Assembly: GCA_014728045.1 (NCBI GenBank)
Contig: WJMH01000006.1
Location: forward strand, 52,738-116,737
Direction: 5' to 3'
Length of the DNA: 64,000 nt
DNA from: Candidatus Omnitrophota bacterium
Lineage (GTDB): Bacteria; Omnitrophota; Gorgyraeia; Tantalellales; Tantalellaceae
In this document: positions 52,501 through 61,500 of the stretch, piece by piece
Numbering within the stretch: the first letter of the stretch is position 1
How the letters are laid out: every line of letters starts with the position of its first letter
Made by a program: the position numbers and the translations under genes
Notes under the pieces: model-generated
The model's database searches: none
What the model was told of the DNA's origin: nothing
Seen by the model: the letters and a program-made list of their open reading frames with translations, nothing else

Positions 52501-55500
52501 CCTGGGCAAGGGGTTCGCCTTCCAGCATCATCGGTTCGCCCACCGCCTCCCCGTCAAGATAAAGCGTCAGCCTCCCCCCATCGAACACAGGTTTCAATAC
52601 CGGTGCCTCCCCGTCTTCTCTTGGCTGTATAAGATATTCGCCCAGCTCATGCAGCCACGCAAGGTCATACTGGGCCACGCTCTCGTTGACGATGATCATG
52701 TTCTCGTCCGGACTGCTGGAAGCCCAACCGAAAACATCAGCCACCAGATCCTCCGCGCGATAGGTGTAGAATTCCGGCAGGCGTCCGCTGTCGGATCTGT
52801 CGATAAAATCAATAATGGCGTTTATGTATGAAGCGTAGTTCTCTTTATCCGGCGGCAGGTTGTCCCTTGCAAGAGAGAGGAACTCCTTCAGCGAATCTAT
52901 GTCTCCGGTATCCCTGCCGGTGCTCCTGGTGATCTCCACCTCTTTGCGCACTATTTTCTTTTTTCTTCCCTCTGTTGTTTCAACCACCATGAATTTTTTA
53001 CCGCCGGACTCTTTTATACCAACCACATTGGCAAGTTTGCCGATCTGCGGGGATACTCTGTCTCCCATGCCTTCGGCGGGAAGAATATCATCCAGCCCCG
53101 GTGGCAGCGGTTTGGGAGCTATATCCTCAAGTTCCTCGGCTGAATCCACTCCCGCCAGAATAAGTTTCGCTTCTTTGACGGTATCCGCTCCGCCCCTGTC
53201 TAGAGCATCGGTCCATCCCTGCTGTATGAATATATTCTCTGTCAAGAGCGCGGCCACCAGCTTCTCAAGGGGCGTCTTGGCCTGGCGCTGGATACGCCTT
53301 ATGACCAGATCCCGGTCCTGGACCCACCGGACCATTGCAGGCGAAACCCCACGCTTTGATTCGGCGAGAATCTCCTGGTAGGTCTGGTCGGACATGGTAT
53401 AGGGATTCTTGCCTTCGTTCATAAGTTCGTAAAGTATATGTCCCAGCGCGAACAGGTCCGTTTTGGGTTTAACAACACCCTCTATCATGGATTCGGAGGA
53501 GATATACCCGGGAGTCCCGATGAACCGGCCCATACCGAATTCTACTTCTCCTTCGGGCGCGTACACGGACAACCCGAAATCAGTTATCTTGAGCTTCCCC
53601 TCGGAAAGCAGTATATTATTGGGCTTGATATCGCAATGCAGTATCCCCCTTTCATGCAGCTCGCCGATCGCCTCAAGAAGTTCTTCGGCAACGGACCTGA
53701 CCTCTTCGTCCCTGAACCTGTCCCCGATACGCTTTTTAAGGTTCATTATGTCCCAGAGCGAGCCGCCTTCGGCGTATTCCTGTATCATGTAATAGTATCG
53801 CTGGCCGTTGAGCTTGTATGTGCCGAGCTCATAAGCATCAATGACGCTGTCATGGTCCTCAAGATGCCTCATCGTAAGATATTCGTTGAAGAACTTTAAT
53901 ACCACCTGGGGTGCAGCCCCCGGCAGAAGTACCTTAACCGCCACTTCCGAGCCATCGGGGGTCTCGCCCTTCATCACCGCCCCGAAACCGCCGGCTCCGA
54001 GCGCTTCCTTTAACCGGTATTCACCTGTTACTCCCTGTATGGATTCCGGGATGGCTATCTGGCGAACGGTCCCGCCGTGAGAGGGCACTCCTATCTGCTG
54101 CTCGCCGATCATCTTAGATCCCGAGATGATCTTATCGGCAATTATATCCGTGAGCATTTCCGCACCGGCCGAGCCCAGCTCACGCAGGTCCGCGCTCAGT
54201 ATGTCCCTGGTCTCTTCAAGGGTAAGTTTTACCGGAGCCCTTACCGGCTCGGCAGCAGGCGTTTCTATCCCGGTAACAACTTCGAGCATGGCCAGCTTTG
54301 CCGGGATCATGCTTTTTCTGTTCCTCTTCAGGAATTCTTTCACCGCCTCGTCTATCGCGCCTGTAAAATATTCGGCTTCATCCGTGCCGGGCTCAACGCC
54401 GAAGGTCTCATTGAGCCACAGGTCCACGAGGCTCTTGAAATCAGTGAAATCCAGCTCCATAAGCGCTCCGGCGTCAACGATGTAAACATCCTCTGTCTCC
54501 GGCTGCTTGACGAAATTCGACCCCTTAAGGTCGTACATCGTCCAACCGGTACCTGTTGTCATGTCAAAGCTGCTCAGCCACAGGTCCACAAGGCTTTTCA
54601 CCGCTTTCCGGTACATCGGCCGCTTCTCTTCGTCAGGCACTTTATCCAAGTCCACTCCGTCGACGTAATCGCCCACCGTGAAGCCGTATATATCACTGCT
54701 TTTGAGTATTCGGGAGATGAACGCGTCAAGCTGTTCGTTTATGAAATACGCGCTTTGCGTCCTTAAGGTCTTCTCCCCTGTCCGGTTGGCCAAAAAGAAC
54801 GCCACTTCCTCGTTGGTGAGGGCCTTTATCCTCTCCAGGTCCTTGATGTCCCTTGGCGTGAGCAGCCTCAGGCTGAACGTGTAAGTTCCCGCGTCTGTTC
54901 TGGCCTGCACGCGGAAGACGCTGTTGAAATCGCCTCTTCCCACGAAACTAACGTTCTCAACGACGAACAAGTCGAAATCTATGCCCTTAAGGTCGGATAC
55001 GTCTTTTCGGATCCGGTCGAGTTTTACGGCAAGTATATCAATAAGGACATCTTTCATGTCCTCCGGGTCATCAATGCCCTCTATGCCCGAAACAAATTCA
55101 TCCAACCCCTCCCAGAGAGTATCGGGTGATACCACCGCCTCGCCCAGCTTCAGGGTCGGCAAAAATCTGTTGAGTCCCACAACGGCAAGATTCGCGATAC
55201 TGTGGTTCAGGATAGAAAGGCCCATGAAAGCGACCGGTCCCGCCGAAAGGAAGGGCAGGATAACTGCGTTGGCCACGGCTACGAGCGAAGGGACCAGAAG
55301 AACCCTGAATACCTCCGGCGGGGAACGGGTTCCCCTCGTGTGATCCAAGACGAATTTTCCGGCCATGAACACCTGAGGTATTATCATGCCGTGCATTATG
55401 AGGAGCCAATCAAGCCCGGAAGTAAGGATATATGACAGGGCCGCTGTCACCAAAAGCGGAAGCCCCCTGTAGAGCGCCTCTTCGGCTACAGGCGCGGCTA

Positions 55501-58500: not shown

Positions 58501-61500
58501 GGGAAATGCGCCTGACTTCCTCCAGACGGCGTATATCCTCACCGGTCTTCTCAAGACCAAAGACCAAATGCGTGCCCATGGGTGATATCATGTTCTGATA
58601 ACCAGGCAGAACCTCTCTTGAGCCTGCTTCTTCTGGAAGAGGTATGGTCCTTTCCTCCCCGGCGATCAATATATCAACGGTCCTTTGGGGTTTCTCCGCG
58701 GGGGCCCCGGAGGTCGGCTTGGCGGGAAGTCGCCGGGTGACCTCTTTTATAACCGCTCTCTGACACGCCGTATACAGGACCAGCAGGAACAGACCGGAAG
58801 CGAATACCGGTCTGTACCTCCGCCCCAGCCAACCGATGAACCTCTCAGCCAGAGCGGCAACGGATCCAGCGTCTTTCAGTCTTGACAGGTTATTGCTGAA
58901 CCATGCTTCGGACAATCCCCTATCCGGCTCTCCCGTGCCGGGATCGCGCCCGACCGAGTTGAAAACAGCGTACCTCGCCGCACCGGAAGTGTTCCTGTCA
59001 AGAAGAGGAACGTCATAACCGGACAGTTTCTTCTCAAGGCTCTCCCACTCGTTTCCTATATCCTCAAGGTTTTCCGGGGCCAGAGGTCTTCCACGTCGGG
59101 TCAGTGAGTCGATCGTATCCGCCGCGGCCTCATTCAGCTGTAGGGAGCTTTCTGCGACGGGTTTGCTTATATTCTTTGTGATCCCGGAGGCTGAGGAGTT
59201 CAGCATCTCTACCCTTCGCCATGTCCCGTGGCTTATGCTCTTATAAAAGACCATGTCCCTGCCGTTATATCTTCCGACGATAAAAATCCTGTCTTCACCA
59301 TCTTCGGGCACGCCCCTGAACGCGTCACGTATTATCATGTAACCATTGAGATGCGCCCATATCCTGGCAAGGAACGACGGATCGAGATCGACTATCACCT
59401 TGGAAGGTATGATCTGCTGGGCGTTGAAGTTCTCCGAACGATAATTACCGTATATCCTGTAGAAATATTTCCTGAACTTTAATATTTCCCGGGCGTCCAG
59501 CCTCTCGTCCAGTTCTCCCTCTATGACGGATGCAATGGTCCTGAGATAGTCCAGGATAAGCTTTTTGGTATCCCTGCCTTCATTGGCAGCCACTCTGAAA
59601 TCACTGAAAAAATCACTGTCAAAATGCTTGCGATAGAACCTGTCGAACCCGCCTTCCTTCTGAACCGCCCTTGCAATGAACTGCGGGTTGGTCTCAAGGA
59701 CTTCGCGCAGATCGACCCGGAACTTGCTGGCCAGGTCCTGTTGCAGGTTGAGATCTATCCATTGGTCGAAATTGAACGGCCCCGGCAGGGCAAGGTCCCC
59801 TCTGCCAAGGAAAAACCCCAATGACTCCGCGAAAATGGAGGCCATGTTGATCACAAGGACATAACCCAAGAGTATGCTGCTCAAAGCGAACGGTCCCATG
59901 CTGGAGTAGGACAAAATGATCCCAGCAATCGAACTTGCGGCAATATTACCCAGAAGACCTCCGAAACGAACGAAAACCGGAGGAGCCCTCCCGGTCCTCA
60001 CCTGGCCGGTATAGAACACCCCCAAAAGGTCCCAGTCCACGAACGCCCCGCTCAGTTTCGCGGCGGTGATATGCCCAAGTTCATGGAAAGGCGTCGAGAA
60101 AACGGACAGGACCCTTACTATCGTATTGAGCCAGGGTGCATCCCTTCTTAGAGCATTGGCCAGTAGTGAATTGGACGGAAGTTCGGTGGTTTCCGAACCG
60201 ACTATGTCCCCGAGCCCTCTGGGCGGGTTCACAGCAGGCGGTTCGCCGAAAAAGTCGGCAGCCTCCCGAGCAACATTCTGGCTGGTAAGATCTACCGTCT
60301 CCGCCCCGGTGCTCACACTTTCGGGCCCGAGATCGATAGTGCTCGCTACCTTCACGGCGCCGCTGGTTGCACTATCAGCGGGCGGACTCCTTCCACGAAG
60401 GGACTTCTGCGTGCGAATCTTTTTGGTGGACGACGTTATCCTGCTGACCGCCGTACCCGCCTCGTTTATCCCGTCCTCGTTCTCGAGCAAAAGCATGGCG
60501 ATGAATTTTTCGAGCTCCGATGATTCCCGGGAATGCGCCCGGCTCTTACCCAAAAGCCGTATCGTTTCGCTGGTCGACCTTCTTTCCTTCTTATCCACCC
60601 ATTCGGCATACTTTTGGTTTTCGAACAGCTGGTTCATGTTCTCTTCTTCTTCATCGGTCCTGTGCTGGGGAAGCTTGCCATCATGCAGCATCTGGTAAAG
60701 GATAACCCCTATGGCATAAAGATCGGTTTTGGCGTTGTATTTCACGTCCTGTCCGTGAACAAAGAAGTTCCTGAGAACATTATTCGGCATATACTCGGGA
60801 GTTCCCGTAAGGGTTTCTGTCGACAAAACTCCCTGAGGAGTAAAACGTGAGATGCCGAAATCAGCTATCCTGAGCCGGCCGTTCACATAGAAAATATTCT
60901 CAGGCTTAAGGTCAGCATGGATGATGCCTTTCTTGTGGATAGCTCTTATCGAGCTTAGAAGTTGTCCGGCGATATCGTATACCTCTTCCTCGGCAAAAAG
61001 CTCATCACGCACCCCCACGCGTTTTTCCGCCTGACGGGTCTGGATCATCGTGCCCAGGTCACCGCCATCGGCGTACTGCATGGCAATGAAATAATATCTT
61101 TCGCCATTATGCTCATAATATCCTGCCTCATAAGGCCTTATAACCCCGGGGACGTCTTCAAGACGTTTCATCATGAGGTATTCCTGCAGGAAATTTATCA
61201 CCGCCGAAGGAGAGCTGCCCGGCTTCAGGATCTTGATCGCTATGTCCCGTTCTTTAAGTCTTCCTTCCGTGACTTTGGCCCGGAAAGCTGCCCCGAAACC
61301 GCCTTTCCCGAGAAGACTTTCCAAGCGGAAAGTGTTCGCGCCCCGGGCTTTTCCTCCCATTATCGTATCGGGTATGACCATGGTCTTGCCGCCGAGCTTG
61401 ATCGCTCGAGCCCTTGGTTTTTTCATGCGTATGTTCCGCTTCGGAAAAAGCTCTTTCCATCTGGGGTTCTTGATCATCCTCCTGTTATCAGATTCGGCAT

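Follow-up and report, generated by a model that had tools for sequence, protein, structure and literature searches.

Divergent protease-like cassettes, probably active, in a giant multi-kinase membrane protein of an Omnitrophota bacterium

We analyzed a stretch of 64,000 nucleotides (in the following, the window) from a Candidatus Omnitrophota bacterium (assembly GCA_014728045.1, contig WJMH01000006.1, positions 52,738 to 116,737 of the forward strand). It contains two giant open reading frames (ORFs), both on the minus strand, and the present analysis concerns the second of them, giant ORF 2. Its product is a polytopic membrane protein in which a block of about 1,650 amino acids (aa) between the first and the later kinase modules consists of five independently conserved hydrolase-like cassettes. 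In order these are a module resembling M50 or site-2 proteases (S2P), two modules centred on the motifs HEASH and HEISH, a transglutaminase-like (TGase-like) domain and a CPBP/Rce1-like module. The best overall explanation, which we regard as probable, is that they are divergent, lineage-specific protease-like cassettes with presumably active catalytic sites, set in a giant membrane protein.

Giant ORF 2 occupies 49526..64000 of the minus strand with 4,824 open codons within the window, the end of which truncates it on the 5’ side. Counted from a TTG start it extends over 49526..63916 and encodes 4,796 aa. All of these 4,796 aa are 100% identical to residues 217-5012 of MBD3425871.1 (P0001), a protein of 5,012 aa recorded as "MAG: protein kinase [Candidatus Omnitrophica bacterium]". 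The reading frame is uninterrupted to base 64000, and MBD3425871.1 adds 216 N-terminal residues to it. This extra N-terminus starts with MKIRFVEKYKLLKKAVALVVILAFFNNFILSDAWA followed by ALEE and resembles a Sec signal peptide or signal anchor. Residue numbers given here are those of the window ORF; numbers of the full-length protein are higher by 216. An initial annotation of this DNA had proposed a TGase-like Cys-His-Asp core together with M50-like and CPBP-like intramembrane metalloprotease signatures at 55174-60133, which corresponds to aa 1262-2915. The motifs it named are all found at these sites, on the minus strand and in the one open frame of giant ORF 2. Absent from that annotation were the HEASH (1886) and HEISH (2153) modules, two additional conserved HExxH modules within the same block.

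Relatives were collected with phmmer, using the five candidate segments concatenated as query against 1.84 billion representatives at E<=1e-3. The 186 matches are mostly proteins of 1,000-6,500 aa, and all relatives with a name (11/11) belong to Omnitrophota. Modules were then delimited by local iterative searches (jackhmmer) over the best 150 of the 186 matches, in which each of the five segments behaved as a separate recurrent domain. The M50-like module is carried by 16 proteins, the TGase-like domain by 69 and the CPBP-like module by 21. Copies were aligned for the CPBP-like (A1, n=22), M50-like (A2, n=17), TGase-like (A3, n=40), HEISH (A4) and HEASH (A5) families; leaving aside the closest relative P0002, copies in A1-A3 are 23-55% identical to those of the window. 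From one giant protein to another the cassettes occur in shuffled order, sometimes with 2-4 copies per protein. P0005 carries 4 M50-like copies, and the CPBP-like module is duplicated (two copies) in several proteins. In 6 proteins a TGase-like domain comes within about 100-200 aa after an M50-like module, and in 5 a kinase comes after a CPBP-like module. A word-index protein search returned no relatives for either query, the block of 1,706 aa or A1, though it also missed a 100% identical representative in the same collection, so that its negatives do not amount to an absence of relatives. No relative was found in a scan of species-genome contigs with the block, and nothing relevant in NCBIfam scans of all segments.

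The M50-like module (59753..60184, minus strand; aa 1245-1388) is a minimal membrane module with HELGH at 60071-60085 (starting at aa 1278), followed by N1357, E1364 and G1373-D1374 (Asp codon at 59795-59797). Among the 17 aligned copies, 25-51% identical to the window copy, H1278, E1279, H1282, G1304, G1320, N1357, E1364, G1373 and D1374 are invariant. Peptidase_M50B (PF13398) scores 20.8-21.4 bits on the window segment, compared to a cut-off of 26; 7/17 members match PF13398 and 4/17 match PF02163, with a best E of 6.6e-5. The family profile matches the site-2 protease of M. jannaschii (3b4r_A) over 134 positions with E=3.6e-7 and 32.9 bits, which aligns the HExxH on H54/E55/H58 of 3B4R. Further downstream N1357...E1364...G1373-D1374 aligns to the N133...N140...D148 region; here the Pro is lacking, GD stands in place of DG and the Asp is 3 positions off. 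The M50-like character claimed initially is thus borne out by the profile match and the invariant HExxH, while the single-sequence Pfam score for M50B stays below its cut-off.

The AlphaFold2 (AF2) model of the M50-like module reaches a predicted local distance difference test (pLDDT) score of 86 and a predicted template modelling (pTM) score of 0.79, and shows the S2P core fold. In the model the HExxH lies in predicted helix 36-49. The helix that the initial annotation had placed around HELGH is predicted as well, but it is not strongly hydrophobic, with Kyte-Doolittle values of only 0.5-0.8; strong hydrophobicity is seen in the two helices that follow it (1.6-2.0). The module shares with S2P enzymes (3B4R, RseP, SpoIVFB; PF02163, PF13398) the HExxH in a membrane-associated helix and two subsequent hydrophobic helices with a conserved Asn and an Asp-containing motif. 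In contrast to S2P, a stand-alone enzyme, the core comprises only ~140 aa inside a 5,012-aa protein, is devoid of PDZ or CBS domains, has N-x6-E-x2-G-x3-G-x-GD as its second motif instead of NxxPxxxxDG and is preceded by a conserved SLLANxF segment. It also stays under the Pfam gathering score, and its relatives occur in up to four copies per protein. The module is predicted to be a minimal and divergent form of the S2P core in which the second motif is altered.

Located at the other end of the block, the CPBP/Rce1-like module (55127..55570, minus strand; aa 2783-2930) is a minimal four-helix membrane module. It contains EEALYR at 55466-55483 (aa 2812) and HSIAN at 55190-55204 (aa 2905) and between them FVLDH at 55340-55354 (aa 2855), an FxxxH motif absent from the initial annotation. 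EExxxR, FxxxH and HxxxN are the motifs that define the CPBP family (PMC6588880). In the 22 aligned copies E2812, E2813, F2855, H2859, H2905 and N2909 are invariant, and A2808, P2809 and R2817 are present in at least 90%. With Rce1-like (PF02517) the window copy scores ~12 bits (11.9; E 0.26-0.28), which is below the gathering score of 22.4. PF02517 is nevertheless listed by 15/22 members with a best E of 2.3e-4, any other family by at most 2. The three-motif pattern is found in 21/25 modules defined by hidden Markov model (HMM) and at only 2 other sites in 288,102 residues, with 0.1 expected per shuffled set. One of these two sites lies in a giant protein from the Logan source (P0064, aa 4041-4260), where it forms part of a more canonical CPBP domain with EEIIFRGF...FYGLH...HVVVN. 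This domain covers positions 12-92 of the 93 in the PF02517 profile with 20.9 bits, slightly short of the cut-off, and hhalign aligns it to the module profile with 94.4% probability (E 8.5e-8) and all three motifs in register. It bridges the window module to the CPBP family.

The AF2 model of the CPBP-like module (pLDDT 84, pTM 0.80) shows four long helices, with EExxxR in helix 21-53 and FxxxH and HxxxN in helices 66-81 and 115-139. The evidence for an Rce1-like fold is weak; in the fold comparison unrelated bundles reach scores up to 7.0. Foldseek found no match with E<0.9 for the model in PDB, and a PDB sequence search with the A1 profile found nothing. The CPBP-like assignment made initially stands on invariant motifs, recurrent sub-threshold Pfam matches and a linking sequence; the score stays under the Pfam threshold, and the fold searches are weak or negative. 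In common with the CPBP family (Rce1 4CAD, SpdC 6U0O, PF02517; APH-1 as remote homologue) the module has the same order of the three motifs, which are spread over three of its four successive helices. It differs by keeping the four-helix core only, whereas Rce1 has 8 transmembrane helices, by its own conserved N-terminal AVTxWLKRxTPxM...AP segment, by an RxPP loop after FxxxH and by its fusion within giant proteins, often directly upstream of kinase modules; the missing Pfam, PDB sequence and Foldseek matches set it apart as well. Very probably it represents a minimal core of the CPBP superfamily. The term metalloprotease used in the initial annotation appears doubtful for this module, because the Rce1 structure revealed no metal site and the family is regarded as dependent on glutamate (PMC6588880). 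Its chemistry is probably based on glutamate and histidine and not on zinc.

The TGase-like (papain-fold) Cys-His-Asp domain (56408..56722, minus strand; aa 2399-2503) is built around C2446, H2480 and D2496. These belong to KRGVCRHMG (starting at aa 2442, Cys2446 at 56579-56581), GHGFAAY (starting at aa 2479, His2480 at 56477-56479) and ILD (aa 2494-2496, Asp2496 at 56429-56431). G2444, C2446, R2447, E2458, G2468 and D2496 are invariant in the 40 aligned copies, and H2448, H2480, an aromatic residue at 2482, Y2485 and Q2499 occur in at least 90%. The resulting pattern GVCRH...GH(A/G)(W/F)...D(V/P)AQ with its C-34-H-16-D spacing is the transglutaminase/papain arrangement. On the isolated domain DUF553 (PF04473) scores 21.8-22.6 bits and exceeds its cut-off of 20.5, although only 15.2 bits are reached in the whole-protein scan. 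Transglut_core (PF01841) yields ~18.7-18.8 bits, compared to a cut-off of 23. Among the 40 relatives DUF553 is matched by 10 and Transglut_core by 6 (E<=0.01 for DUF553), and PDB sequence searches with the single sequence and with the A3 profile gave nothing relevant. The Cys-His-Asp core of the initial annotation holds, with a DUF553 score that passes the cut-off, a Cys and an Asp that never vary and a His that is kept in at least 90% of copies. Typical of the TGase-like/papain superfamily (clan Peptidase_CA) are the nucleophile Cys in GVC(R/x)H, the H-x-W/F strand motif 34 residues on and the Asp 16 further; peculiar to the subfamily in the window are an additional Arg-His after the Cys, of which the Arg is invariant, and a conserved (D/V)AQ after the Asp. 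Some relatives belong to giant proteins, where an M50-like module often directly precedes them; others are small proteins of 140-500 aa. The domain can be classified as a member of the TGase-like superfamily, in which it represents a divergent subfamily whose chemistry may be that of a protease, a cross-linking enzyme or a deamidase.

Both HExxH modules are soluble and located between the M50-like and the TGase-like module. The HEASH module (H1886; 58046..58576, minus strand) was recovered in 9 copies, in which H1886, E1887, H1890, Y1897 and E1907 are invariant; its single sequence has no match in Pfam and its profile none in PDB. The HEISH module (H2153; 57215..57739, minus strand) is represented by 72 domains in 56 proteins, and G2126, H2153, E2154, H2157 and D2175 are invariant. 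It gave only marginal zincin matches. For the two modules together the Pfam and PDB searches did not go beyond such marginal matches centred on the HExxH. A fourth HExxH, HESVH, is found at aa 742-746 (61679-61693, minus strand), flanked by hydrophobic stretches (aa 658-700 and 763-781). The sole match in this region is a weak one to DUF3267, a 'putative zincin peptidase' (E 0.3).

A protein of 4,796 aa that holds four HExxH matches and many C...H...D combinations, and in which a whole-protein Pfam scan finds only kinases above threshold, could be thought to contain these motifs by chance, without any protease-like domains around them. We rejected this explanation, which is extremely improbable: every motif set belongs to a separate conserved domain family in which the motif residues do not vary, the M50-like profile finds a site-2 protease at the E value given above, and the CPBP motif triple marks 21 of 25 modules, compared to the 0.1 occurrences expected per 288 kaa shuffled. 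The kinases recognized by Pfam are two Pkinase stretches (E 4e-82), also delimited with a local HMM. One Ser/Thr protein kinase domain lies upstream of the protease-like block at 60632..61339 (minus strand; aa 860-1095), the other downstream at 53327..54046 (minus strand; aa 3291-3530). Weaker kinase-like modules within 49529-54300 (minus strand), namely ABC1-like at ~aa 3080-3170 and ~4060-4130 and WaaY/Kdo-like at ~aa 4470-4500, bring the number of kinase-type modules to about five, two canonical and three weaker.

The initial annotation had named profile searches and conservation of the catalytic residues as its own tests. Profile searches with isolated segments gave a divided picture, with DUF553 over its cut-off and Transglut_core, M50B and Rce1-like under theirs. 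The conservation is clear: motif residues are invariant or nearly so in 17, 40 and 22 related M50-like, TGase-like and CPBP-like modules, respectively. Catalytic residues survive the shuffling of the cassettes and losses are rare (e.g. P0008 1774-1946 and the His of P0056), which argues for active enzymes. Judging from this conservation, it is quite likely that the cassettes are active enzymes and not relic motifs.

Alternatively, the membrane modules could be mainly structural, protease-derived bundles that function as anchors or as metal- or lipid-binding pseudo-enzymes, accompanied by a TGase-like domain with a non-proteolytic activity such as cross-linking, deamidation or acyl transfer. 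Such a role would suit the small size of both membrane modules (~140 aa), which have no PDZ, CBS or extra transmembrane elements as seen in characterized enzymes, and the TGase fold is chemically versatile. Non-proteolytic members of the CPBP superfamily are known as well, among them APH-1 and SpdC (PMC6588880) and the N-acylation component LnsB of S. aureus (PMC7387801). However, catalytic residues remain invariant across copies that are otherwise 25-50% identical, and pure anchors would not keep buried charged residues; the rarity of motif loss points in the same direction. We therefore consider a mainly structural role distinctly unlikely.

Several observations weigh against the interpretation of the block as a set of probably active protease-like cassettes. 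As single sequences, the M50-like segment (21.4 bits, cut-off 26) and the CPBP-like segment (11.9 bits, cut-off 22.4) score too low for their Pfam families. The second motif of the M50-like module reads ExxGxxxGxGD and not NxxPxxxxDG, with its Asp 3 positions from D148 of 3B4R. The relatives of the CPBP-like module include the non-proteolytic SpdC and the S. aureus N-acylation component (PMC7387801), and the TGase fold also allows cross-linking, deamidation or amidase chemistry. Finally, the topology is based on a parity argument and not on the prediction of a dedicated tool, and aa 1705-1723 may or may not span the membrane.

These residues form an isolated hydrophobic stretch (~58750-58806, minus strand; FASGLFLLVLYTACQRAVI) with K/R on both flanks. 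Whether or not it is membrane-spanning determines the side of the membrane on which aa 1389-1704 are located. The parity argument suggests that the TGase-like and the soluble HExxH modules lie in the cytoplasm, which argues against a direct action on host proteins, as envisaged in the initial annotation, or on prey proteins.

This localization bears on the possibility that the cassettes are active proteases which work in trans, on proteins other than the giant one. The M50-like module might then cut a membrane-tethered regulator by regulated intramembrane proteolysis, in a kinase-coupled signalling hub. The CPBP-like module might be a sorting or maturation protease, as myxosortase is for C-terminal anchors, or the modules might act on prey after their release. 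Action in trans is canonical for stand-alone S2P and CPBP enzymes (PMC9401612, PMC11980579). Kinase modules recurrently follow CPBP-like modules, and the signal-peptide-like N-terminus of the full-length protein implies that part of it is extracytoplasmic. In addition, giant proteins of Omnitrophota have been linked to predation (10.1101/2023.11.21.568195). On the other hand, up to four M50-like copies per polypeptide and tandem CPBP-like copies are hard to square with a single signalling switch, no anti-sigma or sigma partner gene adjoining giant ORF 2 is evident among the ORFs of the window, and the cytoplasmic placement of the TGase-like and zincin-like modules speaks against it. Altogether we regard an exclusive role in trans as rather unlikely.

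As to function, we favour a role in which the cassettes, built into the chain, would process the giant protein itself or its paralogues by proteolysis, or else control their quality, at and near the membrane. The initial annotation had raised self-processing; it is plausible, and the invariant catalytic residues and the multi-copy distribution of the cassettes are compatible with it. We put the broader proposal forward tentatively, as the most likely among the accounts of function considered but short of probable. The two membrane cassettes would also serve as anchors. Carried further, giant ORF 2 would encode a bacterial polyprotein that brings along the means for its own maturation. The M50-like and CPBP-like cassettes within the membrane, and with them the TGase-like and HExxH cassettes in the cytoplasm, would make cuts at cassette borders or close to them and thereby release kinase and other modules as separate products. 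Shuffled multi-copy protease cassettes could then be a general route from the enormous ORFs of Omnitrophota to working parts. This stronger version appears unlikely.

For other giant proteins of Omnitrophota it has been proposed that peptidase domains of the C39 and S8 types might cut them into pieces (10.1101/2023.11.21.568195; 10.64898/2026.06.07.730766). Like the 'Archaeovorins' and other giant proteins described there, the product of giant ORF 2 is a multi-enzyme protein with many transmembrane segments. It is smaller, with 5 kaa as compared to 30-147 kaa, and it is kinase-rich. Text searches of both reports did not return M50, CPBP or transglutaminase terms. In a literature search linking Omnitrophota with these module types, none of the top matches listed mentions the phylum.

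Giant ORF 2 is situated among chromosomal genes of ordinary type, coding for SMC, AlaRS, TrpE, FabF, acyl-CoA dehydrogenase, ETF, GH1 and aldo/keto reductase; an exact look-up of the aldo/keto reductase gave no record, and a tRNA search of the window found none. Giant ORF 1 (15371-30331, minus strand; 4,986 aa) contains two HATPase_c-type domains and has weak matches to STAND-NTPase and PCMT methyltransferase. It shares no module with giant ORF 2 by BLASTP, and the module HMMs matched no other ORF of the window, giant ORF 1 included. Between the two giant genes lie ORFs 41636-44287 and 44353-45984 (both on the minus strand; 883 and 543 aa), which have no Pfam match at E<=0.001. An identification of the N-terminal domain of giant ORF 2 as a Tiki/TraB-like hydrolase was considered and dropped, Pfam giving it no support.

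In summary, the enzyme superfamilies represented in the block are known; what is new is that they appear in a minimal form specific to the lineage and serve as repeated cassettes in giant multi-kinase proteins. As a rule, S2P and CPBP intramembrane proteases stand alone. In the present proteins both are reduced to minimal versions with intact catalytic residues, embedded in giant chains and duplicated and shuffled beside a TGase-like domain and two HExxH families. Five lineage-specific domain families are thereby defined in proteins for which public annotation says only 'protein kinase' or 'hypothetical protein'. Omnitrophota are characterized by giant ORFs, the products of which may act as single chains or be cut into pieces; earlier work pointed only to C39 and S8 domains. 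For this question of self-processing, H1278/E1279, C2446 and E2812/H2859/H2905 now provide concrete residues.

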